DNA of 64,000 nt from Candidatus Binatia bacterium. GTDB lineage: Bacteria; Desulfobacterota; Binatia; UBA9968. The notes below the pieces were generated by a model. That model was not told where the DNA came from and did no database searches. It worked only from the letters and a program-made list of their open reading frames with translations. The stretch covers positions 25,548-89,547 of the forward strand of contig JBHHYU010000001.1 in assembly GCA_046757725.1 (NCBI GenBank), given 5' to 3'. Positions 2,736 to 36,748 of the stretch are shown here, piece after piece (positions within the stretch are counted from its first letter, which is position 1; each line of letters opens with the position of its first letter). A program made the translations under genes and the position numbers.

Positions 2736-4463
2736 TTAGAGACTCATTGCGTCTGTAACCAACGCTTGTATCTTCTGCCGCGCCTCACCCACTGAAAACT
2801 CTTCAACACTGCCGCCACGCCGCCAACGCACTTCCACGCAGTCCCTTTTCAGTCCCTTGGCACCAATGGTAACCCGTAACGGAACCCCGATGAGATCCGC
2901 ATCCTTAAACTTGACACCGGGCCGTTCATCCCGATCATCCAAGAGGACCTCAATCCCGTGCCTTAAGAGATCCCCGTAGAGTACATCGGTTACGGCTCCA
3001 ATTTGTTCATCTTTGTAGTTGATCGGTAAGATCAGAACATGAAAAGGGGCCAATAAAAAAGGCCAGATAATTCCACTGTCATCGTGGTTTTGCTCAACAG
3101 CGGCGGCGAGCAAACGAGTGATACCGATTCCATAGCAACCCATTTCAATTGGCCGCTCCCGGCCTTCGGCATCGAGGTAGGTCGCACCCATGGATTCACT
3201 GTATTTCTTTCCTAGATAGAAGACCTGCCCAACCTCAATTCCACGATGGTACTCTAGGGCCCCGGTATCACACCGAGGACAGGGGTCTCCTGCCAATGCC
3301 GTTCGAAGATCGGCAAAATTGGAAGGTGTAAAATCCCGCTCCTGATCCACCTCTATCAAATGGGCATTGACTTCGTTGGCACCTGTCACCGCCCTGCGTA
3401 TTCCCTGTATAGCCTGGTCTGCAACGATACGGAGATTGAGCCCCATAGGTCCCAGAAAACCAGGCGGAATATTGGTGGCTTCCTCGAGCTCCGCGTCGTT
3501 CGCCAGGGCTACCTCCTGACAGTTTAAGACCGACCTCAGCTTTGATTCATTGACCTCATGATCCCCACGGACCAAAACAGCCACTAACTCTGTTTGGTCA
3601 ACCTTGTAGACTAGCGTCTTGACGAACCTCGCCGGAGGCAGGGAAAGAAAATTAGCCACCTCAGCCACGCTTTTCTTCCCTGGGGTGGCGACTTTTTTTG
3701 AGGGTGGGGAGGGTTCTTTGAGGTCGCGCGCTGATGGCCGCTGCGTCTTGACCTCCGCCTTCTGGACGTTGGCCGTGTAGTCACAACGATTACAGCTTAC
3801 GAGAGCATCCTCTCCCGAATCGGCGAGCACCTGAAATTCATGGGAGAGGGAGCCCCCTATGGTACCTGTATCCGCCTCTACTGGACGAAACTTCAGACCA
3901 CAGCGGGTAAAGATTTTTTTGTAGGCTTGAAACATGTTTTCATATTCTCGCCGGCAGTCTTCTTGAGTGGCGTGGAAGCTGTACGCATCCTTCATGATGA
4001 ACTCTCGACCCCGCATCAAGCCAAACCGGGGACGCACTTCATCGCGGAACTTGGTTTGGATCTGGTACAGGTTCAACGGAAGCTCGCGATAGGACCGAAC
4101 CACATGCCGGACTAAGTCTGTAATCACTTCCTCATGCGTAGGACCAAGGCAGAAATCTCTCTCGTGACGGTCCTTGAAGCGTAAAAGTTCCTTCCCGTAG
4201 ACTTCCCAACGGCCACTTTCCTGCCACAGCTCGGCGGGGGAAACAATGGGTAGTAAAAGCTCCTGTGCCCCGGCCCGATTCATTTCCTCTCTCACCGTGG
4301 TCTCTATCTTGCGGATAATCCTGACTGCTAAGGGGAGGAAATCGTAAATGCCTCGACTCACTTGGCGGATAATCCCCGCGCGGACCAGGAGTTTGTGACT
4401 GACTACCTCTGCGTCAGCAGGGTCCTCTTTTAGCGTCGGTATGAACGTTGTGCTCCAGCGCAT
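2736..4463 (-). CDS. proS: Proline--tRNA ligase (bacterial type with editing insertion)
   Basis: 575-aa ORF. N-terminus MRWSTTFIPTLKEDPADAEVVSHKLLVRAGIIRQ and class II aaRS motifs (FRDE..RPRFGLMRGREF). Confidence 0.95.
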   Translation of the reverse strand: MRWSTTFIPTLKEDPADAEVVSHKLLVRAGIIRQVSRGIYDFLPLAVRIIRKIETTVREEMNRAGAQELLLPIVSPAELWQESGRWEVYGKELLRFKDRHERDFCLGPTHEEVITDLVRHVVRSYRELPLNLYQIQTKFRDEVRPRFGLMRGREFIMKDAYSFHATQEDCRREYENMFQAYKKIFTRCGLKFRPVEADTGTIGGSLSHEFQVLADSGEDALVSCNRCDYTANVQKAEVKTQRPSARDLKEPSPPSKKVATPGKKSVAEVANFLSLPPARFVKTLVYKVDQTELVAVLVRGDHEVNESKLRSVLNCQEVALANDAELEEATNIPPGFLGPMGLNLRIVADQAIQGIRRAVTGANEVNAHLIEVDQERDFTPSNFADLRTALAGDPCPRCDTGALEYHRGIEVGQVFYLGKKYSESMGATYLDAEGRERPIEMGCYGIGITRLLAAAVEQNHDDSGIIWPFLLAPFHVLILPINYKDEQIGAVTDVLYGDLLRHGIEVLLDDRDERPGVKFKDADLIGVPLRVTIGAKGLKRDCVEVRWRRGGSVEEFSVGEARQKIQALVTDAMSL

Positions 4464-22143: not shown

Positions 22144-23877
22144 CTATGTTCGGCTCCAGCGCCAAAAAAAACCTAACCCGAGACCGAGAAAGCACAGAAG
22201 CGGCAACAGGCTGATCAGCCTGCCCGACCATAAGAATTCTCCCAGGTTAAAAGAGTTCCAGTGGTCCGGAATGGTGCCTCCCGGCTGATAAACGCGGCGA
22301 AATGGCGATTCATAAATACCAATCGGATTCGCTGACACCGGCCCTTCAAGAAGTTCCTCACCGATGTGTTCTCCAGACGGGTGGGAAAGAATCAATCGTA
22401 TCGTCTGCCCTCGAAGCAAGGGTAAAAGGTATTGGCCCATCGGATTTGGAATCCCTTGCGGAAAGCGCGGATCGACGGCCGTCGCTAGAAGCATGGTCAA
22501 TGCTGAAAACATGGCCAAGACGAGTGTGGCGCGGAAGCACTTCTGAAAAACAGGCGTCAGCGAGAGACATAGAAACGGTAAAGCGGGAATTAAAAAGCGC
22601 GGGCCCATGGCCCACCCGCCATCCCACGAGTTATACGAGGAATTCGTAAACAGGAATCCGAGGAAGATTGCGATCCACAGCACAATCTCCGCCCGCTTCT
22701 GCTGCTCGCTTGCCGTTAGCCAAATACCTAAACCCGAGAGGAAAAGCACTGGAGAAGTGAAAAACAAACCGCGGTAGCCGGAAAAGAGCAAAGCAACCAT
22801 AATTTCAAATCGGGGCCGACCAAACATACCTAAACTGAGCCCTTGATGCAGCATCCATTCGCCTTGGTAAGCGTAAGAAATCGTCACCGGGCTGCCGAAA
22901 CACAATAAATTATACCATCCGAGCACGGCTACAGGCGGTATCGCCCCCGCAATAAAAGAAAGGACCTTCCAGCGAGGTCGAGTTGCCCAGAAGACGTAAA
23001 GCGTAAAGCAGGCTACAGTGATAATGGAGGTATATTGCATGAGTAAGATAGTCCCACTGACGACACCCGCGACAAAAAGGATAAGTGCGGGACGAACGGA
23101 TGCGATCCCACTGTTTTTGTTAACCAAAAGGAGTAAATAAACAAAAAGAGATAGTACGGCGACAAGATCATGCTCAATTAGCATCGTGGAATACGGCAGC
23201 ATGAGTGTTCCCAAGCCAAACGTTAATGTTGAGGCAATATGAGCCCAGGCGGGAGATGAAGGAAAAAGCTGAAGCGAGGTCCGGTAAAAGATAACACCTC
23301 CAAGGGCCGCGATGAGGGATACCGAGAAGACGGTCGTGAAGTAGACATTCATAGTCATTGGCCACCAGTGATCCGGATGGATACCCAGGAGACGGTCAAC
23401 GTTATAGACGATAAAATAAGCCGGCACTGCGCTAAGAACGGCTCCGGGAGGTTTATTTGGGTAAATATGGCTGCCAAATCGCGATACATCTCCAGTATTC
23501 CAAGCCGTGCTGATCTGCTCAAGCGGAAGATCTGCGAGCGCAGATGGAGGGAACGTTAGCCGGCGGAGCGCCAGCCTCCCTTCCCGGTCGGGGCCAGCGG
23601 TGTAAAGCGAAAAATTCTCAATTTCTAACGTACCCTCTTCAACAATGGAGCGAACTTGGTCAAATCTGCCGTTTACGCCCCACCCTCCGCCTTGATAGAA
23701 ATAGGCATAGGTGAGGAGAAGCATGAAGAAGATCGTCAGATCTATGCGTATTTTCCTCACCTCTTTTAAATGATGAAACTTTTTGCCGGGACAGGTAGAG
23801 GTCGAAACTACTTTCGAACGACCTGGCGGCAGTTCACCTACGTTGGAAACTACAATCCCAGGGCCTTTGTTTTGCAA
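22144..23877 (-). CDS. Large polytopic membrane protein, GT-C-like (ArnT/PMT-type glycosyltransferase-like); function and start uncertain
   Basis: 577-aa ORF with more than 10 predicted TM helices and an early extracytoplasmic loop (YQGGGWGVNGRFDQ..GDVSRFGSHIYPNKPPG). The track start is a TTG, so the true start may be further downstream. Confidence 0.45.
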   Translation of the reverse strand: MQNKGPGIVVSNVGELPPGRSKVVSTSTCPGKKFHHLKEVRKIRIDLTIFFMLLLTYAYFYQGGGWGVNGRFDQVRSIVEEGTLEIENFSLYTAGPDREGRLALRRLTFPPSALADLPLEQISTAWNTGDVSRFGSHIYPNKPPGAVLSAVPAYFIVYNVDRLLGIHPDHWWPMTMNVYFTTVFSVSLIAALGGVIFYRTSLQLFPSSPAWAHIASTLTFGLGTLMLPYSTMLIEHDLVAVLSLFVYLLLLVNKNSGIASVRPALILFVAGVVSGTILLMQYTSIITVACFTLYVFWATRPRWKVLSFIAGAIPPVAVLGWYNLLCFGSPVTISYAYQGEWMLHQGLSLGMFGRPRFEIMVALLFSGYRGLFFTSPVLFLSGLGIWLTASEQQKRAEIVLWIAIFLGFLFTNSSYNSWDGGWAMGPRFLIPALPFLCLSLTPVFQKCFRATLVLAMFSALTMLLATAVDPRFPQGIPNPMGQYLLPLLRGQTIRLILSHPSGEHIGEELLEGPVSANPIGIYESPFRRVYQPGGTIPDHWNSFNLGEFLWSGRLISLLPLLCFLGLGLGFFWRWSRT

Positions 23878-24066
23878 AGAAAGTATCCGATATGACGAAT
23901 GATGTCAAAATAATGGAGACACTTTGGCAAACGGCTCCGACCGGGTAGTTTAGGGTGCTGGTGACGGATTCGGGACTGCGGAAGGCGGGCTGATCGGTGA
24001 CCGCCGTAGAAACCCTGAATTTCTGATACTCAACCTCACAAACCATTTGCTGCTATCATTTAACTC

Positions 24067-24433
24067 GGCTCTACCGTAAAAAGAGTGCTGTTCCAGTTAA
24101 ACACAGGGGGCCCGCTCCTCAGTGAGAGCCGATAGACCTGTACTTCTCTGCCCCCTAAGCTGTTAACCCATTAGGCCCATTTCCCTCAAGTCTCTTTAGG
24201 GTCGGCCGTCTCCCTCTCCTCGGAGCCTACCCCCTGCGCCGTGCACCCATGTATCCGGTTCCGAGGGAGGAGACCTGGAGGCCTGGGGCACGGGGAGGTG
24301 GAGGTTTAAGGCAGGCCCAGGCCGTTGGAGAGCTCAGCCGAAGGGGACGGGAGGGTGGCCGTCGAGGCACAGGACTTATTGACTCAGGCCGGAAGGTTTT
24401 TTCCTGAGGAACCACACTAATTAACGGTGAGCC
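24067..24433 (+). mobile_element. Non-autonomous MITE-like element, copy A (367 bp)
   Basis: Ends are GGCTCTACCGTAAA / TTAACGGTGAGCC (imperfect TIR). A perfect 9-bp direct duplication ATTTAACTC lies at 24058-24066 and 24434-24442. Homologous to 34937-35281 in reverse orientation. No ORF is conserved between the copies. Confidence 0.85.
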
Positions 24434-24442
24434 ATTTAACTC

Positions 24443-24469
24443 TTGACAAGCATTTTACCTCGTTATAGT
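24443..24469 (+). promoter_or_regulatory. Sigma70-like promoter candidate for the riboswitch-tonB transcript
   Basis: TTGACA (24443-24448) and TATAGT (24464-24469) with a short 15-nt spacer, about 20 nt upstream of the riboswitch P1. Confidence 0.35.
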
Positions 24470-24491
24470 TTCTTTTCACTTTGATTCAGTG

Positions 24492-24675
24492 CTCTAAGGC
24501 GTCATAGGGAAGTCCGGTGCAATTCCGGCGCGGTCCCGCCACTGTAATTGGGTAAGTTCTCCTGCGCTTCAAAGCCACTGTCCTGAGATGAGTTAAAAGG
24601 ATGGGAAGGCCGCAGGAAGTTGGAGGGTTGAATTAAACTCCTTCCAGACCCATAAGCCAGGAGACCTGCCTAGAG
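24492..24675 (+). promoter_or_regulatory. Cobalamin (B12) riboswitch 1
   Basis: Core GGGAAGTCCGGTGCAATTCCGGCGCGGTCCCGCCACTGT, internal GCCACTG...GGGAAGGC, and 3' AAGCCAGGAGACCTGCC. The closing helix CTCTAAGGC / GCCTAGAG is present. Located upstream of tonB. Confidence 0.9.
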
Positions 24676-24901
24676 CCAAATAACCCGACTTTCCGAAGGA
24701 GAGAGAAAGGTTCACCTTGTCCGCTCGGTCCTCAAATCCAATCCCTTGTTATTACGGTGAGGTCGAAACTTCCGGGATTTGGTGTTTGCAATTTTGACCC
24801 CTTCCCTCTCGTTTTCGGCATAGTCCTGAACCCTTTTTGAGTGTTGCTAGAAAAGCCTGGTGGCGCCGGGGCGATTTTTTTTGGTACAGGGAGCCGCACA
24901 C

Positions 24902-25846
24902 ATGAGATTGTCTCCATTCCTTGGCATCTCCGTTTTACTGCACGCTTTAATTCTTACGTTGCCATCCTGGTCTTCTCAGTCAGGGCAAGGGCATGAGATC
25001 ATCCCTGTGGCTTTGTTCATGACAGAGCATGCTGGAGATCATGGGCTGATCCCGGTGGGCAACAAAATCGGTTTGGATGTATCTGAACCACTGTTACCGG
25101 GCAGGCCAGAGCAAACTGTACGCGAAGAGCCGCGAAAACTTAAAAAGGCACGATCGACTATGAGCGACACGCTTAAGTTCCAGAATCGCCCGGTTAAACA
25201 GCAGACGCCCGTGAAGAGACGAGTGAAAAAATATCAAACCACAAGGGTTTTGGCGGGTCGGAGTTTTGATAGACTCGGCCCCGCCGCAAGCATCGCGACG
25301 AAAAGTCGGGCCCTTGGCCAAGAGAAGGACATTCAGAGGCCAAAAGTCCCTGCGGAGGTTGTAAGCCGGCGGGGCTTATCTGAGTGGTACATCAACGAAG
25401 CTGGTACGGAAGATCCGCTGTTAGGGGAGTTGACTAAAGGTGAGACTGTGGCGCCCAAAGATGGCGGCCGGGAAGGGGTGGAATCCGGGAAAAACAACCT
25501 ACCCTTGGCAGATCAAGCTCAGTCGGCGATGGATCCTATCTCGGAAAGTCGGCAGAAAGGAGGTCTTACACAGGCGGGTTATGAGTATTGGTTCAATCCG
25601 GAATATCCTAAAAAGGCAAGAAAAGAAGGTTGGGAGGGAACTACCGTGCTCAGGGTCTTAGTCGATGAACAGGGAAACTCTAGAAGGATTCAGATAACGC
25701 GAAGCTCCGGTTTCGAATCTCTCGATCAGGTGGCAGTGAAAGCAGTCAAGCGCTGGCATTTTCATCCGGCCCAACGAGGGGCCAAACCGGTGCCGAGCTG
25801 GGTCAAAATCCCGATCGTCTTTCGTCTCAACGGTGGCAACATGTAA
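24902..25846 (+). CDS. tonB: TonB family energy transducer
   Basis: N-terminal anchor MRLSPFLGISVLLHALILTL and the C-terminal TonB_C domain (YPKKARKEGWEGTTVLRVLVDEQGN..IPIVFRL). ATG 24902 is preferred over the track start 24860 because a GGGAG lies 8 nt upstream. Confidence 0.8.
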   Translation: MRLSPFLGISVLLHALILTLPSWSSQSGQGHEIIPVALFMTEHAGDHGLIPVGNKIGLDVSEPLLPGRPEQTVREEPRKLKKARSTMSDTLKFQNRPVKQQTPVKRRVKKYQTTRVLAGRSFDRLGPAASIATKSRALGQEKDIQRPKVPAEVVSRRGLSEWYINEAGTEDPLLGELTKGETVAPKDGGREGVESGKNNLPLADQAQSAMDPISESRQKGGLTQAGYEYWFNPEYPKKARKEGWEGTTVLRVLVDEQGNSRRIQITRSSGFESLDQVAVKAVKRWHFHPAQRGAKPVPSWVKIPIVFRLNGGNM

Positions 25847-25868
25847 ATAGGCAAGACTCATATCTATT

Positions 25869-26034
25869 GGCTGCAGATCGGATTCGAGGGAAAGGGGTGA
25901 AATTCCCCTGCTGCCCCGCAACTGTGATGGCCACGAAAGCCGCAGGTATCAGCCACTGTCCTGAGCCAAGTCAAAGGATGGGAAGGCGCGGCGAGTAGGT
26001 TAAAGCCTAAGCCAGGAGACCTGTCCATTCTGCC
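25869..26034 (+). promoter_or_regulatory. Cobalamin (B12) riboswitch 2
   Basis: GGGAAAGGGGTGAAATTCCCCTGCTGCCCCGCAACTGT core, AGCCACTGTCCTGAG...GGATGGGAAGGC, and 3' AAGCCAGGAGACCTGTCC. Ends about 30 nt before the btuB SD/ATG. Confidence 0.9.
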
Positions 26035-26068
26035 TTAACGATCCCCCTTCGTGGGAGAGGAGGTTCTC

Positions 26069-27916
26069 ATGAAACGATCCATATTTTTTGTCTTTCTTCT
26101 CTTCGTCAGTTTTCTCACGAGCATATCCTCTGGAGTGGAACCTGAGGAAAAAACTCTCGAGCCTGTCGTGGTGACGGCGACCCGGATTGAAACTCCCGTA
26201 AAAGAGGTTACAACCTCGATCACCGTGATCACGGAAAAGGAAATTAGGGAACAGCAGGCGGAAACGGTTTTGGATGTTTTACGTGACGTGCCGGGGGTAG
26301 ATGTGATTCAAACCGGTTCTCGGGGAGCAGTTGCCTCGGTGTTTATTCGTGGCTCCAATTCGAACCAAGTTTTAGTGCTCGTGGATGGCATGGAGGTTAA
26401 CAGCGTTACGGCAGGACTGTTTGATTTCGCCCATCTGCTTACAGATAACGTTGAGCGAATTGAAATCTTGAGGGGAGCCGGTGGCACTCTCCACGGCTCA
26501 AAGGCGGTCGGCGGTGTTATCAACATCTTGACTAAAAAAGGGAAGGCTGGGCCCGAACTGATTACCTCCCTGGAAGGAGGAAACGGTTCCACTCATCGGG
26601 AAACGGTTAATTTTTCAGGCGGGTCAGACAGGTGGAACTACTCCGTGACGGGAAGTTTCTTAAAAACAGACGGGTTTCGCAGGGTCAATGACGATTATAA
26701 AAACATCTCCGGCTCAGCAAAGCTTGGCCTTAAGCCGATGGATCATGCCTCTCTGACCGCGACTTTCTGGACGACTGAAACGAGACTCGGGCTTTCGAAC
26801 AGCAACAACTTTCTTTCCGTTCCGGATCCCAATGACCGTCAAGAAGACCAATTCTGGGCCGGTCGCATACAGTGGAAACACGAGCCGGTGAAAAGTTTGG
26901 ACTATCGTTTTGGCTTGGGAATGACGCAGGGTCATCAGCGGAACGTTACAAGGATCGACTCAATAGATACGACAAACAGAATCAGTCGTATTCGGCCTCA
27001 AATTATCAATCCGGAGTTCCAGATCCATTACCGCTTGAATCGGCTCGCTGAACTCACCTTCGGTGTAGATTGGGATATCAGAGAGGCAAAATTCAGTGGG
27101 ATTCAACCCAAGCAGAATAACCAGGCCCTCTACGTTCAAAACCGTTTCCACATGCTGGACGAGAATTTTATCGTAGTAGGGGGGATCCGTTGGGACCATA
27201 ATGAAGACTTCGGTCAAGAGTGGAGCCCCTCCGGCTCGTTTGCCTATCTCGTTCCAAAGCTGGGTACGAAACTTAAGGCCAATTATGTGCAGAGTTTCCG
27301 CGCCCCAACCTTTAATGACCTCTTTTTTCCCGGTTTTAGTGATCCTAATCTGAGCCCGGAGACGGCCTGGGAAACCGATATTGGAATTGAGCAGCCTTTA
27401 TTTAAGGATCGATTACACTTGGAGGCGATTTACTTTCATAGGGAGGTTAAGGACCTCATCGTCTTCCGGGGATTTAGTCCCGAGAACGTGGGCCAGGCGA
27501 TCTTCGATGGTGTGGAATTTATCGCAGCGCTCAAGTTGCCTTGGGGGCTTTCGTGGCGGGGAAACTACACTTTCCTAAACATCAGCGATCGCATCATCCG
27601 CCGGCCCAAACATAAAGGAAACTTGACGCTTAATTACAAGAATGGTCCCCTTAACTTCAACCTGAATACCCACATTACGGGGCGGCGTCTGGATATTGAT
27701 GCCAATACCTTCCGTACGATCGACAAGGGAGGATACACGCGTTTTGATCTTGCTGCCTCATACGTGCTTCCCTGGCGAGCTCCTGGAGTCAAATCGGTCA
27801 GCCTTTACGGTAAAATTGAAAATCTCTTTGACAGGGGATATGAGGAGGCCGACGGCTTCCGTGCGCGACCTATCAATTTCCTGATCGGGATTCGAGGAGC
27901 ATTCGGGAGGAATTAG
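26069..27916 (+). CDS. btuB: TonB-dependent outer-membrane receptor (cobalamin receptor by riboswitch context)
   Basis: Signal peptide MKRSIFFVFLLFVSFL, TonB box/plug (EPVVVTATRIETP), and a beta-barrel with a terminal aromatic region. Directly preceded by a B12 riboswitch. Confidence 0.85.
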   Translation: MKRSIFFVFLLFVSFLTSISSGVEPEEKTLEPVVVTATRIETPVKEVTTSITVITEKEIREQQAETVLDVLRDVPGVDVIQTGSRGAVASVFIRGSNSNQVLVLVDGMEVNSVTAGLFDFAHLLTDNVERIEILRGAGGTLHGSKAVGGVINILTKKGKAGPELITSLEGGNGSTHRETVNFSGGSDRWNYSVTGSFLKTDGFRRVNDDYKNISGSAKLGLKPMDHASLTATFWTTETRLGLSNSNNFLSVPDPNDRQEDQFWAGRIQWKHEPVKSLDYRFGLGMTQGHQRNVTRIDSIDTTNRISRIRPQIINPEFQIHYRLNRLAELTFGVDWDIREAKFSGIQPKQNNQALYVQNRFHMLDENFIVVGGIRWDHNEDFGQEWSPSGSFAYLVPKLGTKLKANYVQSFRAPTFNDLFFPGFSDPNLSPETAWETDIGIEQPLFKDRLHLEAIYFHREVKDLIVFRGFSPENVGQAIFDGVEFIAALKLPWGLSWRGNYTFLNISDRIIRRPKHKGNLTLNYKNGPLNFNLNTHITGRRLDIDANTFRTIDKGGYTRFDLAASYVLPWRAPGVKSVSLYGKIENLFDRGYEEADGFRARPINFLIGIRGAFGRN

Positions 27917-32028: not shown

Positions 32029-33186
32029 CTATTGCCTGTTTCTGCTTTGCCTAAGCAGGCTCCGTGCTATGACGAGTTTTTGGATCTCTGAGGTCCCTTC
32101 ATAGATTCTCAATGCGCGGACTTCGCGGTAAAGTCGTTCCACGACGGTTCCAGCCACTACGCCCATCCCGCCATGGATTTGCAGCGCCTGGTCCACGATT
32201 CTCTGGGCGGCCTCAGTGGCAAAGAGCTTGGCCATTGAGGACTTCTGTGTCAGACCCTGTCGGCCACAATCATTCATCGAGGCGGCCTGGTAGACGAGGA
32301 GGCGAGATGCCTCCAGCTCTGTGGCCATGTCGGCGAGTTTGAACTGAATCCCCTGGAACCGAGCCAACTCCTGTCCAAACTGACGGCGGCTTTGGCTGTA
32401 CCGGATCCCTTCCTCCAGAGCCCTTTGAGCCAACCCAACGGCTGCAGCCCCGACACTGGCACGGAGGGTGTCCAGAGTTTTCAGTGCTATTTTGAGCCCT
32501 TCCCCTTCTTTACCTAAAAGATTCGTTTCTGAAACACGGCATTCCTCGAAGGCAATAACGCCGATGGGATGGGGAGCGATAAGCGGAATCTTCTCTTTAA
32601 GAACCAATCCCGGGGTGTCACCCGCCACCACAAAGGCACTGATTCCCTTTGCTCTTTTATCGGGATCCGTCAAGGCAAAGACCACATAGGTGTCGGCCAG
32701 TCCCGCATTGGAAATGAAGCGCTTAACTCCTTTGAGATAATATTCCGTGCCGCGCTTGACTGCCAGGGTTGCCATAGAGGAAACATCCGACCCCGCCTCT
32801 GGCTCCGTAAGGGCGAAGGCAGCAATAGCCTCTCCCATGGCGATGGCCGGGAGATAACGGGCCTTCTGCTCCTCGTTTCCTGCGATAGTGATGGGATAGC
32901 TCCCGAGGCCTTGCATGGCGAACATCGCATCTGCCAGGGAGGAGCCCCGAGCCAATTCCTCCCGAAGCAAACACAAGTCGCGGGCCTGAACCTTAGCGTG
33001 GACACCACCGAATCTTTTGGGCGCCACATAGGCAATAAATCCATCACGGCCGAGCCGCCTTACGAGCTGCACAGCTTTTTTCTCGATATCTGTTTCGTCT
33101 TCGGAAACCCCGAATAGGTTCTTTTCCACCCAGGAACGGATGTGCTCGCGCAGGGATAATTGCTCTTGGTCAAGAAAGAGATCCAT
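32029..33186 (-). CDS. Acyl-CoA dehydrogenase (start reassigned to internal ATG)
   Basis: ACAD homology starts at MDLFLDQEQLSLREHI (ATG at 33186), giving 385 aa. The upstream 181 codons of track ORF 32029..33729 overlap the enoyl-CoA hydratase gene in another frame and are low-complexity. Confidence 0.88.
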   Translation of the reverse strand: MDLFLDQEQLSLREHIRSWVEKNLFGVSEDETDIEKKAVQLVRRLGRDGFIAYVAPKRFGGVHAKVQARDLCLLREELARGSSLADAMFAMQGLGSYPITIAGNEEQKARYLPAIAMGEAIAAFALTEPEAGSDVSSMATLAVKRGTEYYLKGVKRFISNAGLADTYVVFALTDPDKRAKGISAFVVAGDTPGLVLKEKIPLIAPHPIGVIAFEECRVSETNLLGKEGEGLKIALKTLDTLRASVGAAAVGLAQRALEEGIRYSQSRRQFGQELARFQGIQFKLADMATELEASRLLVYQAASMNDCGRQGLTQKSSMAKLFATEAAQRIVDQALQIHGGMGVVAGTVVERLYREVRALRIYEGTSEIQKLVIARSLLRQSRNRQ

Positions 33187-33200
33187 TATGAATCCACATC

Positions 33201-33995
33201 TTACGTTCGGTTGAATATCGGCTTCCTTTTTTCCATAAAGGCCCTGTACCCTTCTTGAAAATCCGGCATCTCCATGCATTTGGCCTGGGCAGTAGCCTCC
33301 ACTTCCAAAGCGGCCTCCAAGTCCATATCTGCCTCGAGCTTGAGTAGCTCCTTGGTCACCCCCAGAGCATGAAGCGGTCCCTCTTTCAGCCGGCGTGCAA
33401 GTGCGTACGCCTCCTCCATTAATTTTTCCTGCGGTAACACTCGATTGGCTAAACCGATCCGATAGGCTTCCTGGGCATCTACAGAGTTCCCTAGAAAGAG
33501 AAGTTCTGTTGCTTTGGCCTGACCCACTATTTTTGGCAACAAGTACAGGGCCCCCATATCGGCTCCGGCCAGACCTACCTTTACAAAGAGAAAGGCAAAC
33601 CTCGCTTTGTCCGAAACGAGCCGAAAATCGCTCGCCAATGCCAACATGGCTCCTGCACCGGCAGAGATTCCATTGACCGCCGCTATGATCGGCTGCTTGA
33701 GGTTGCGTATGTTTTTCACCACGTTGCACGTCATGCGGGTAAACTTGTATAGTTCATCCCCTTTCATCCGAATCAGTTTTCCGATAATGCCGTCGACGCT
33801 TCCACCGGAGCAGAAACCCTTTCCGTTTCCAGTGATGACCAAGACCTTGACTGTCCTATTCTCGGCTAGCTCTCTCGTTAGGCTCTCCAGTTCTTCGTAA
33901 GTCTGGAAGGTCAAGGCGTTCAGCTTATCCGGATCATTCAGACGGACGGTTGCAATGCCGTCTTCGACTTCGTAGATAAAACTCTGATAGGTCAT
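33201..33995 (-). CDS. Enoyl-CoA hydratase/isomerase family protein
   Basis: 264-aa crotonase-fold ORF (VITGNGKGFCSGGS, AAVNGISAGAGAMLALASD). Confidence 0.88.
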   Translation of the reverse strand: MTYQSFIYEVEDGIATVRLNDPDKLNALTFQTYEELESLTRELAENRTVKVLVITGNGKGFCSGGSVDGIIGKLIRMKGDELYKFTRMTCNVVKNIRNLKQPIIAAVNGISAGAGAMLALASDFRLVSDKARFAFLFVKVGLAGADMGALYLLPKIVGQAKATELLFLGNSVDAQEAYRIGLANRVLPQEKLMEEAYALARRLKEGPLHALGVTKELLKLEADMDLEAALEVEATAQAKCMEMPDFQEGYRAFMEKRKPIFNRT

Positions 33996-34079: not shown

Positions 34080-34859
34080 TCACATCATAACCGCTCCACC
34101 ATCCACGTTAATCGCTTGTCCCGTAATCCCCTTTGCCGACTCGGCGGCCAAGGTCAGGGTCAGGTCCGCAACTTCCTCAGGTGAGATCAACCGCTTCTGA
34201 GGTGAGGTACCCTTAAAAAAGTTGAGCACTTTTTCTGGATCCTTACCTGTTTTTTCGGCCATCGACTTCGCGTTATTCAGTGTTAAGGGAGTATCAACAT
34301 AGCCCGGGCACACGGCATTGACCGTAACACCGGATCTTGCCATCTCGATGGCCAGGGCACGTGTCAGCCCCAAGACGGCGTGCTTTGATGTCGTATATGC
34401 GGAGATATGGGAGTAAGCAACTTTGGCGACCGTTGAAGCGATGTTAATAATCCTTCCCCAACCCGATGCGATCATTGCTGGAAGAAAGGCTCTGCAGCAG
34501 TAGTAAGTCCCCGTTAGATTGACCTTCAAAACTTCTTCCCAAAGTCGATCATCCATCTGCAAGAAGGCTACAGCCGGAGCAATTCCGGCATTATTGATTA
34601 AAACCTGGACAGGTCCAAGACGGGCTTTGATCTCATGCTCCAGTTTTTCGACCTGGTTTTTTTTGGTAACATCGCAGGGCAAGGCAAGGGCGTCAGACCC
34701 AACATTGCGGATCTCCTCAACTACCGCCTCAAGGCTCTCCTGAGTTCGTCCCGTAACGACCACGCGGGAACCCTGAGCAGCAAAAGCAAGGGCAATGGAA
34801 CGCCCGATGCCTCGGCTGCCTCCTGTCACCAAGACGATCTTGCCATTACGCTCTTTCAT
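34080..34859 (-). CDS. Short-chain dehydrogenase/reductase (3-hydroxyacyl-CoA/3-oxoacyl reductase-like)
   Basis: 259-aa ORF with TGGSRGIGRS cofactor motif, NNAG, and catalytic YTTSK. Confidence 0.88.
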   Translation of the reverse strand: MKERNGKIVLVTGGSRGIGRSIALAFAAQGSRVVVTGRTQESLEAVVEEIRNVGSDALALPCDVTKKNQVEKLEHEIKARLGPVQVLINNAGIAPAVAFLQMDDRLWEEVLKVNLTGTYYCCRAFLPAMIASGWGRIINIASTVAKVAYSHISAYTTSKHAVLGLTRALAIEMARSGVTVNAVCPGYVDTPLTLNNAKSMAEKTGKDPEKVLNFFKGTSPQKRLISPEEVADLTLTLAAESAKGITGQAINVDGGAVMM

Positions 34860-34898
34860 GATGTTCCCGTTTCCTCAAGCTTCCGATAGATAAATCAA

Positions 34899-34927
34899 AG
34901 AATATGGCCGCTATGCAGCCGCGTCAA
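34899..34927 (-). promoter_or_regulatory. Sigma70-like promoter candidate for the SDR-ECH-ACAD-ACAD operon
   Basis: On the minus strand: TTGACG (34927-34922), 17-nt spacer, TATTCT (34904-34899), about 40 nt upstream of the SDR ATG, which has a GAGGAAA SD. Confidence 0.4.
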
Positions 34928-34936
34928 GTCCTGGGA

Positions 34937-35281
34937 GGCTCTCCGTTAAAGAGAGTGGTTCCTCAGGAGAAAACCTTCCGGCCTGAGTCGATAAGTCTGT
35001 GCCTCGACGGCCACCCTCCCGTCCCCTTTGGGTGAGCTCTCTGACAGCTTGGGCCTACCTCCAACCTCCACGTCCCCGTGCCCCAGTCCTGCAGGTTTCC
35101 TCCCTCGGAACCGGATGCATGGGTGCACGGTGCGGGGGTAGGCTCCGAAGAAAGGGAGACGTCAAACTGTGATCGTGCTCGGTGTCGAACACGAAACACG
35201 AACACGAGCCACGAAATGGGCTCCCACTGAGGAGCGGGCTCCCTGCGCCTCTGGAGCACCACATTTGTTAACGGTAGAGCC
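34937..35281 (-). mobile_element. Non-autonomous MITE-like element, copy B (345 bp, inverted relative to copy A)
   Basis: Read on the minus strand it starts GGCTCTACCGTTAA and ends TTAACGGAGAGCC. A perfect 9-bp duplication (TCCCAGGAC on the minus strand = GTCCTGGGA on plus) lies at 34928-34936 and 35282-35290. About 9 in 10 positions are identical to copy A over the 3' 226 nt by hand alignment. Confidence 0.85.
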
Positions 35282-35296
35282 GTCCTGGGATGCCTG

Positions 35297-35325
35297 TTGA
35301 TCGCTTTCGCAACTCTCTTTATAAT
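35297..35325 (+). promoter_or_regulatory. Sigma70-like promoter candidate for the M48/TPR protease gene
   Basis: TTGATC (35297-35302), 17-nt spacer, TATAAT (35320-35325). An AGGAGG SD and GTG 35342 follow. Confidence 0.4.
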
Positions 35326-35341
35326 TCTCCGTAGGAGGATT

Positions 35342-36748
35342 GTGCCTTTGGTACGTTGCCGACTCAAGGGGTCCCTCAGTGTTTTTTTGTTGTTTATGTT
35401 GGGGGCATGTGGTTCTCATCTTCCGAATCTTCCATCCGAGATGCCATTCATGCATCGGATCACCCAAGCGGATGAGATAAAAGCCGGTCGACAATTCCGC
35501 CGCGAGGCAAAGGACAAGCTCAAGTTTGTACACCGACCGGAAATTGAGCGATATGTCAACGAGGTAGGGCAGAGAATCCTCTCCGTTATGGGACCTCAAC
35601 CCTTTGAATATCGTTTTTTTGTGGTAGAAGACTCCCAGGTAAATGCCTTTGCTATTCCTGGCGGATCCATTTATGTATTTAGCGGCCTTATTGAACGGGT
35701 AACTAGCACGGACGAGTTAGCTAGTGTTTTAGGTCATGAAATCATACACGTAAAGGCACACCATATGGCCCGCATGTCAGGGCCAAACGTTACGAGCCTG
35801 TTAGGGATTCTAGGTTTTTTTCTGACTGCCAGCGGTTCCCAGGCCGCAGGGGTATTGAGCCAAGCCGTGGCTGCGACGAACCAACTCTCGTACACTCGCA
35901 AATTGGAGCAGGAAGCCGATGCTGGTGGTGTCAAAAATATGTCGGCGGCGGGTTATGACCCAAACGCAGCTCTGGGGTTTCTTAACATCATAGATCAGGA
36001 GCGGACCTTAAACCCAGTTGATGTCCCTCCTTTTTTGCTAACTCACCCTCTAAGCCAGGAGCGGCTCAACAGGATGGAAGCGGTGATACGCTCCTTTAGA
36101 CTGGAGAGGCCACACTTGGGGCGTCCCGACGGGATCAAGAGAATCCAGACGATGCTGGTTTTGGAAAAACAGGATCCGGAGGCCGTGTTAGAAAAACTAA
36201 AAAAATCATATGGCCAGTCTCCAAAGAGTGCCGAGTCAATGCACCTTTTCGGTCTTGCCCGTTATCGCAAAGGAGATTGGGGTCCGGCTAGGAACTATTA
36301 CGAGCAGGCAAGGCGGATTAACCCCAAGTGTCCAGGGATTGATCGGGATTTAGGCCGTCTCTATACCAAAACAGGAGAGTTCCGTTTGGCCCATGCAGCA
36401 TTTGAGCGTTCGGTAAAGGCCAGCCCCAATAACTCTCTGAACTATTTATACCTGGGCGAGTTATTTGAGAAGGAATCCAATCTTCCACAAGCGGTCGGTG
36501 CATACCTCAGAGCCCACAACCTCTCCCCCTTGTGGCCTGAACCGCCGCGTCGCATGGGAGTCATCTATGGTAAGATGGACCGCATGGCGGATGCCTTTTA
36601 CTATTCGGCGAGATCCCATCTTTTGTCGGATGAAGATGAAAAGGCAAAGGCCGACCTGCGCCAGGCGTTGTCCCTCTATGGAAAAGCCTCTCCTCGCGGC
36701 CAAATGGTGAAAGAAGAGCTCGAGGTGATCAAAGCTCGGGACAACTAA
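35342..36748 (+). CDS. M48 family metalloprotease with C-terminal TPR repeats (BepA/YfgC-like lipoprotein)
   Basis: HEIIH zinc motif, lipobox MLGAC, and TPR-like C-terminal half. GTG 35342 is preferred because of an AGGAGG at 35333; the track start is TTG 35297. Confidence 0.8.
   Translation: MPLVRCRLKGSLSVFLLFMLGACGSHLPNLPSEMPFMHRITQADEIKAGRQFRREAKDKLKFVHRPEIERYVNEVGQRILSVMGPQPFEYRFFVVEDSQVNAFAIPGGSIYVFSGLIERVTSTDELASVLGHEIIHVKAHHMARMSGPNVTSLLGILGFFLTASGSQAAGVLSQAVAATNQLSYTRKLEQEADAGGVKNMSAAGYDPNAALGFLNIIDQERTLNPVDVPPFLLTHPLSQERLNRMEAVIRSFRLERPHLGRPDGIKRIQTMLVLEKQDPEAVLEKLKKSYGQSPKSAESMHLFGLARYRKGDWGPARNYYEQARRINPKCPGIDRDLGRLYTKTGEFRLAHAAFERSVKASPNNSLNYLYLGELFEKESNLPQAVGAYLRAHNLSPLWPEPPRRMGVIYGKMDRMADAFYYSARSHLLSDEDEKAKADLRQALSLYGKASPRGQMVKEELEVIKARDN

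Follow-up and report, generated by a model that had tools for sequence, protein, structure and literature searches.

Several families of bacterial MITEs, such as Correia/NEMIS, ERIC/IRU, RUP and Chunjie, occupy promoter or operon contexts, form RNA hairpins and can alter the expression of their neighbours. Correia and RUP elements duplicate TA on insertion. The IS903 group of the IS5 family, by comparison, produces a 9-bp duplication, has ends starting with GGC and shows a preference for the sequence that flanks the duplication; the end of IS903 itself is GGCTTTGTTGAATAAATC. The third group to be considered is the ISL3 family. ISArsp7 has the end GGCTCTTCGCGGTTGGTGGTGAAT and an 8-bp repeat (PMC6305408), an ISL3 element from Fervidobacterium is bounded by GGCTCTAT... 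and ...AAAGAGCC (PMC5398504), and a 187-nt ISL3-derived MITE of Microcystis aeruginosa as well as its ISL3 partners have the ends GGCTCTTCG and 8-nt repeats (PMC11448079).

The element described here was found in 64,000 nucleotides from a Candidatus Binatia bacterium (assembly GCA_046757725.1, contig JBHHYU010000001.1, positions 25,548 to 89,547), referred to as the window. A first-pass annotation had placed a MITE-like element, copy B, between two divergent promoters, and every sequence feature that it described for 34928-35290 is present where it was said to be. The element and its borders are composed as follows.

34928-34936, no strand: first copy of the target-site duplication, GTCCTGGGA on the plus strand, identical to 35282-35290 (direct read).
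34937-35281, minus strand: MITE-like element copy B, 345 bp, whose own orientation is that of the minus strand of the window (repeat search, alignment, blastn, nhmmer).
34937-34949, minus strand: right terminal inverted repeat, ...TTAACGGAGAGCC on the minus and GGCTCTCCGTTAA on the plus strand (direct read, alignment of copies A and B).
34956-35112, minus strand: conserved core hairpin, about 157 nt long, which has a tandem G-A/G-A internal loop close to the base (covariance model, 169 bits).
35162-35215, minus strand: central module peculiar to copy B, a CGTGTT-rich hairpin (CGTGTTCGTGTTTCGTGTTCG...) (alignments, fold).
35268-35281, minus strand: left terminal inverted repeat, GGCTCTACCGTTAA (direct read, repeat match in the window).
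35282-35290, no strand: second copy of the target-site duplication, GTCCTGGGA (direct read).

The perfect 9-mer can be read directly from the sequence at both borders, and the 345 bp between the duplications run from GGCTCTACCGTTAA to TTAACGGAGAGCC on the minus strand. The two termini form an inverted repeat of 13/14 nt (GGCTCTACCGTTAA against GGCTCT-CCGTTAA, with one single-base gap), which an imperfect extension (GGCTCTnCCGTTAAnnAGnGTGGTnCCTCAG) brings to about 30 nt. The probability that one element has a perfect 9-mer at both borders by chance is about 4e-6, and a different 9-mer recurs at copy A. The G+C content of the two window copies is 59-61% versus 52% for the window.

Mobility of the repeat, as the first-pass annotation had proposed, is indicated by its further copies. 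A repeat search of the whole window returned one family of long inverted matches, pairing 34937-35245 with 24104-24433, the latter belonging to copy A.

24067-24433, plus strand: copy A, 367 bp, flanked by ATTTAACTC duplications at 24058-24066 and 24434-24442 and followed by TTGACA at 24443-24448 (alignment, blastn, nhmmer).

These borders of copy A slightly amend the first-pass annotation. Copies A and B lie 10.5 kb apart in opposite orientation. Copy A has the same ends as copy B and a perfect 9-bp duplication of its own, ATTTAACTC, which differs in sequence from GTCCTGGGA. According to blastn, the copies are 89% identical across the 3′ 227 bp and 79% across the first 67 bp, with an unalignable central module of 50-90 nt between these parts. 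The third copy resides on metagenome contig VAPJ01885271.1 (L005) between prfB and the next gene, a genomic context unrelated to that of the window copies, and shares 83% identity with copy A over 334 bp, a stretch that includes the central module of copy A. As the central module of copy B is missing from copy A and the metagenomic copy and is unrelated to the module that these two share, the family is a mosaic. The metagenomic copy has degenerate ends, and a matching duplication was not found at them; it is therefore either older or the outcome of recombination between copies. An nhmmer profile of all three copies matched copy B with an E-value of 7e-110.

The metagenomic copy was the sole true relative among eight loci returned by a 20-mer scan of metagenomes, the other seven being chance matches. 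An exact 22-mer of the core gave one chance match (Dactylosporangium) in species-representative genomes, with no alignment beyond the 22 nt. Neither viral contigs, searched with two patterns, nor a plasmid collection, searched with copies A and B by blastn, contained a match to the element, and a covariance model of the core yielded no additional copies when about 175 kb of loci from relatives were scanned.

An assembly artefact was ruled out, since both junctions of copy B are reproduced in two independent samples. By exact look-up of the flanking proteins, contigs carrying the same junctions were identified from two sequencing runs, SRR29324609 and SRR29324611. On the dehydrogenase side they end 40 and 45 nt into the element, and on the M48 side 61 nt into it in both runs. 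Contig breaks at the first highly conserved block, on both sides and in two samples, are probably those that a multi-copy repeat causes in de Bruijn assembly.

The overlapping ORFs predicted in this region had been regarded as artefacts of the element, and we agree. None of the four ORFs over the element has a Pfam match, and two six-frame pseudo-protein queries had no homologue among the matches listed. A protein-coding reading was rejected since none of the frames runs through all three copies free of indels and stops.

Taken together with the features expected of a MITE, these observations make it very probable that copy B, which lacks a transposase of its own, derives from a DDE-type insertion sequence and was moved in trans as a non-autonomous element of a family not previously catalogued. 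Terminal inverted repeats are present at both intact copies, and both are flanked by duplications of fixed length and variable sequence (9 bp, GTCCTGGGA and ATTTAACTC). With 345 and 367 bp the copies are small and contain neither a transposase nor any other conserved ORF. They are dispersed, as the window contains two copies and another metagenome a third, and an orthologous site lacking the element exists (see below). ISL3 elements and their MITEs are among the closest known systems. The likeness lies in ends that start with GGCTCT, followed by a C/G-rich part, a T/A-rich stretch and a GTGGTG-like motif; the GGCTCT(T) terminus was recovered in comparison with the published ends of ISArsp7, Fervidobacterium and the Microcystis ISL3 elements and MITE. 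For instance, the present end GGCTCTACCGTTAACAAATGTGGTG and the ISArsp7 end GGCTCTTCGCGGTTGGTGGTGAAT have the same GGCTCT start. Like ISL3 MITEs, the element is small, non-coding and intergenic, folds into stem-loops and is flanked by direct repeats. In contrast, its duplication measures 9 bp rather than the 8 bp of the published ISL3 examples compared, neither junction of either intact copy is compatible with an 8-bp reading, and nucleotide similarity is limited to the ends. The host also differs, being an uncultured Binatia-like lineage, and an autonomous partner such as an ISL3 transposase with matching ends was found neither in the window, which holds no other terminal-repeat match, nor in plasmids or species-representative genomes, where the only match was due to chance. 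Because the ends of the element most resemble those of the ISL3 family, an ISL3-like transposase is the leading candidate for the partner. Given that no partner transposase was found and that the duplication is 9 bp long, we classify the element as a MITE whose ends are ISL3-like and do not claim a proven ISL3 derivative.

Members of the IS903 group would be alike in their 9-bp duplication, a terminal GGC(T) and possibly a flank preference; the IS903 end GGCTTTGTTGAATAAATC would have no resemblance to GGCTCTACCGTTAA beyond GGCT. The classical bacterial MITEs are likewise non-autonomous, 100-400 bp long, largely palindromic, intergenic and organised in modular or mosaic subfamilies; their sequences, however, are unrelated to the present element and their duplications differ in length. 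Co-transcriptional effects of the kind known from those families are not expected at the copy B locus, as the element is located upstream of both promoters and not inside a transcript.

The surroundings of copy B consist of two divergent transcription units, each preceded by a promoter-like site.

34080-34859, minus strand: short-chain dehydrogenase (SDR) gene, the first of the divergent operon (Pfam, exact product look-up).
34899-34927, minus strand: promoter-like site TTGACG-17-TATTCT of the SDR-ECH-ACAD-ACAD operon, with the -35 hexamer abutting the duplication (scan; TTGACG-17-TATCCT in the relative L020).
35297-35325, plus strand: promoter-like site TTGATC-17-TATAAT of the M48/TPR lipoprotein gene (scan; identical in L020).
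35342-36748, plus strand: M48 peptidase/TPR gene, GTG start at 35342, 468 aa (Pfam, translation).

Deletion of the element and one repeat yields ...CGTCAA GTCCTGGGA TGCCTG TTGATC..., precisely the ancestral arrangement that had been reconstructed before. A promoter scan independently listed both proposed hexamer pairs, TTGACG-17-TATTCT and TTGATC-17-TATAAT, which are 15 bp apart in the reconstructed site, and these were the only two sites in the 1 kb from 34600 to 35600, where 0.4 were expected. At present, 369 bp separate the two -35 hexamers. Both promoter-like sites are situated just outside the element and are directed away from it, and scans of copies A and B detected no promoter-like or terminator-like site inside either of them.

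An AGGAGG ribosome-binding site at 35333-35338 precedes the M48 gene, which encodes a lipoprotein signal ending in an LGAC lipobox. Two independent assemblies have records identical to its 468-aa product. The mechanically predicted M48 ORF takes the TTG of the -35 hexamer as its start codon, whereas the gene in fact begins with the GTG at 35342. The dehydrogenase operon comprises, according to Pfam, the SDR gene followed by genes for an enoyl-CoA hydratase and two acyl-CoA dehydrogenases. At 32029-33729, a mechanical ORF of 566 aa overlaps the hydratase gene. Its long N-terminal extension is not real, since independent gene calls give an acyl-CoA dehydrogenase of 385 aa. Within the putative dehydrogenase promoter, the spacer separating the -35 from the -10 hexamer is taken up by a G+C-rich inverted repeat (GGCTGCATAGCGGCC, minus strand) at 34906-34920, a possible operator that is only partly conserved in L020.

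Decisive for the history of the locus is a relative in which the element is missing. The nearest SDR homologues are just 78% identical and stem from MAGs with the label Deltaproteobacteria or Candidatus Binatia. One of them, L020 (GCA_044231025.1, contig JAZHBT011300476.1), carries the M48 gene divergent from the dehydrogenase, hydratase and acyl-CoA dehydrogenase genes in the same arrangement as the window. It is a fairly distant relative and no sister strain, with 78% amino-acid identity for the SDR and 65% over 219 aa for the M48 protein. Neither the nhmmer profile nor the covariance model found the element at this locus. The intergenic region of L020 is 79% identical to that of the window after removal of the element and one duplicate, with both promoter-like sites in register, and the promoter scan of L020 recovered this pair of sites as TTGATC-17-TATAAT and TTGACG-17-TATCCT. 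Both -35 hexamers are unchanged, and the distance between them is 12 bp versus 15 bp in the reconstructed site. As both promoter-like sites stand back to back in an ortholog without the element, the element is an insertion. Orthologous loci carrying it as conserved, non-repeated DNA would have contradicted the first-pass annotation; such loci were looked for and the opposite was seen. Conservation of the four hexamers between the window and L020 amid diverged spacers amounts to a phylogenetic footprint and argues that the putative promoter elements are real.

Other relatives, namely L012, L014, L018, L021, L023, L024 and L025, gave no information on an empty site, because the genes upstream differ. 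In two of them the dehydrogenase operon is preceded by TTGGCACAGTTTGTGCT (L023, 85-105; L024, 2240-2262), which resembles a sigma-54 -24/-12 promoter and takes the place of the sigma-70-like site of the window and L020. In L020 itself (650-700), the likely start of the M48 gene (MFRRLL...) follows only 7 nt after TATAAT, so its mRNA may be leaderless; the corresponding 16 nt in the window carry the AGGAGG motif.

Copy B sits exactly between divergent promoters, where regulatory DNA would be expected, and might thus be taken for a native, non-mobile region of the M48/SDR spacer, i.e. a large operator or enhancer with coincidental 9-mers at its borders. This idea has practically no likelihood left. 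Nothing separates the -35 hexamers in L020 apart from 12 bp, the element sequence is also present at two other, unrelated loci whose flanks differ, and a perfect 9-mer at both borders, observed twice, is not plausible as a chance event. The native-region explanation is effectively refuted by the element-free relative together with the copies at unrelated loci.

Beyond its ends, the element contains a hairpin whose distribution is not tied to them. In the closest relative (L012), the profile of the three copies matched two regions, 1166-1346 and 3300-3412, in both cases to the 3′ core only, and the covariance model placed the corresponding repeats at 1175-1334 (149 bits) and 3310-3433 (80 bits). 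Both are short hairpins of the same architecture, TTCCGAGGG...GGCCC...CCnGAGGAA with the tandem G-A/G-A internal loop near the base, and have no GGCTCT ends or different ends. They occur within 4.2 kb in the same genome as L013 (GCA_022565095.1), both in sense orientation between or after co-directional genes, and a perfect 13-nt inverted repeat, ACTAATACAAACG/CGTTTGTATTAGT, encloses the second one. Weak matches of the covariance model to the left modules of copy A and the metagenomic copy, in reverse orientation, suggest that an A-type element approximates two hairpin units arranged head to head.

An alignment of five sequences, representing about three independent lineages, defined a consensus hairpin of 44 pairs with 89% of cells paired; the structure was derived from the same alignment on which it was tested. 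Pairs that had changed on both sides and yet remained paired numbered eight according to RNAalifold and nine according to a pair-count tool. The observed pairing was reached in just 0-1 of 500 column shuffles, and slid controls dropped to 32-60% paired. Moreover, the forward strand of the three window-type cores folded as RNA with -70 to -76 kcal/mol versus -46 to -51 kcal/mol for the reverse strand, an asymmetry in which composition favours the G-rich strand. The shuffle z-scores were -3.4 for the forward (0 of 200) and -1.5 for the reverse strand (15 of 200).

It is conceivable, if improbable, that this hairpin of about 157 nt is the actual functional unit, acting as a structured RNA (a stabiliser, a processing site or a small RNA), and that the ends and the duplication are only its vehicle. 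The core persists in the two repeats of the closest relative without GGCTCT ends, and the sense orientation of these repeats would suit an RNA. A purely DNA-level parasite needs neither strand asymmetry of a hairpin nor compensatory changes, of which up to nine in 44 pairs were counted. On the other hand, copy B is probably not transcribed at its locus, being placed between two outward promoters with none inside, and the metagenomic copy is antisense to its neighbouring genes. Rfam 15 produced no match on the element at gathering score, at which it reported only two cobalamin riboswitches elsewhere in the window, nor any at a credible score up to E 5 in permissive E-value mode, where the best values were 1.3 and 3.9. 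The covariation comes from few lineages and from a structure tested on its own alignment, better folding of the G-rich strand is expected from composition, and templated repair within palindromes can mimic compensatory change.

The same hairpin raises the question of the mode of spread. A long strand-asymmetric core and the occurrence of core-only short variants without GGCTCT ends in a relative are reminiscent of REP/BIME-type repeats, which would be spread by a single-strand HUH/RAYT or IS200/IS605-like mechanism and not by a DDE transposase. We regard this as very improbable, because 9-bp duplications combined with terminal inverted repeats at both intact copies reflect staggered double-strand cleavage, which HUH systems do not perform. 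In addition, REP/BIME units are palindromes of 20-40 nt without duplication and go along with a RAYT gene, whereas the element, at 345-367 bp, exceeds a REP unit about tenfold, and neither an HUH gene adjoining any copy nor a RAYT gene near any copy was seen. Transposition by a DDE enzyme supplied in trans thus remains the preferred explanation.

The sequence next to the duplications deserves attention, as each intact copy is followed on the same side, and a decayed copy on both sides, by a -35-like motif.

24434-24448 and 34922-34936: 9-bp duplication adjoining the right end of copy A and copy B, respectively, then TTGAC(A/G) (direct read).
About 1305-1330 and 1690-1712 of the metagenomic copy L005: beyond each end, 9 nt followed by an outward-reading TTGACA or TTGATA.

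At the right end, GAGCC is followed by ATTTAACTC and TTGACA in copy A and by TCCCAGGAC and TTGACG in copy B; it is the same end with the same spacing. This adjacency is unlikely to be due to chance, because TTGAC occurs in the window at a rate of only 0.0012-0.0016 per oriented position, although it was noticed after the fact and in two intact copies plus one decayed copy. It could represent a flank preference that aims the element at -35 boxes, or a survival bias. In the former case, the transposase would prefer a 9-bp segment followed by TTGAC, and insertions flush against -35 hexamers might modulate promoters. Such targeting is possible but unlikely. Consistent with it, the TTGACG beside copy B belongs to the ancestral flank, as it is present in L020, and both ends of the metagenomic copy have 9 nt before the outward motif. 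Yet the motif was picked after the data were seen, the three copies are few, the left flank of copy A is devoid of such a motif, and the sequence following copy A scores poorly as a promoter in the scan (TAGTTT as -10). Survival bias in intergenic regions would enrich promoter-proximal insertions anyway. We are also doubtful about a combined scenario, in which a promoter-seeking MITE inserts flush to TTGAC, strips promoters of their upstream DNA and carries a compensatory, strand-specific hairpin, found stand-alone in relatives, with a function at the level of RNA or single-stranded DNA.

Copy A is located 38 bp upstream of the first of two plus-strand cobalamin riboswitches (24472-24687 and 25863-26042; Rfam 86 and 91 bits). 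The first riboswitch precedes a gene with a TonB-C domain (24860-25846). The second precedes a TonB-dependent receptor gene (26051-27916) followed by periplasmic-binding, FecCD and ABC genes. Divergent from copy A, a 577-aa ORF on the minus strand (22144-23877) has no Pfam match at E 0.01.

For copy B, insertion of a MITE by a DDE transposase would have proceeded in three steps. A transposase encoded elsewhere presumably recognised the terminal inverted repeats of roughly 14-30 bp (GGCTCTnCCGTTAA...), cuts staggered by 9 bp would have been made in the target TCCCAGGAC with joining of the element, and gap repair would have generated the 9-bp duplication. The putative target was the 15-bp gap between the -35 hexamers of the back-to-back promoters, and both core promoters would have stayed intact as it lay between these hexamers. 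Each putative promoter would thereby have lost its native upstream DNA and now have foreign DNA in this position. Since the element is free of sigma-70-like promoters and intrinsic terminators and the flanking promoters would fire away from it, copy B is most likely a tolerated, largely neutral spacer at this locus. An effect via lost shared upstream sites or via supercoiling coupling is nevertheless conceivable.

In summary, copy B adds a family of mobile elements to the record of a poorly known uncultured lineage, and the element explains the spurious ORF calls and the assembly breaks at these sites. The locus amounts to a natural experiment, in which the same promoter pair exists with its -35 hexamers 12-15 bp apart in the relative and the reconstructed ancestor and 369 bp apart after insertion. 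It could show to what extent divergent promoters depend on shared upstream DNA. If true, TTGAC-adjacent targeting would be a simple, sequence-based route for a transposon to find promoters.
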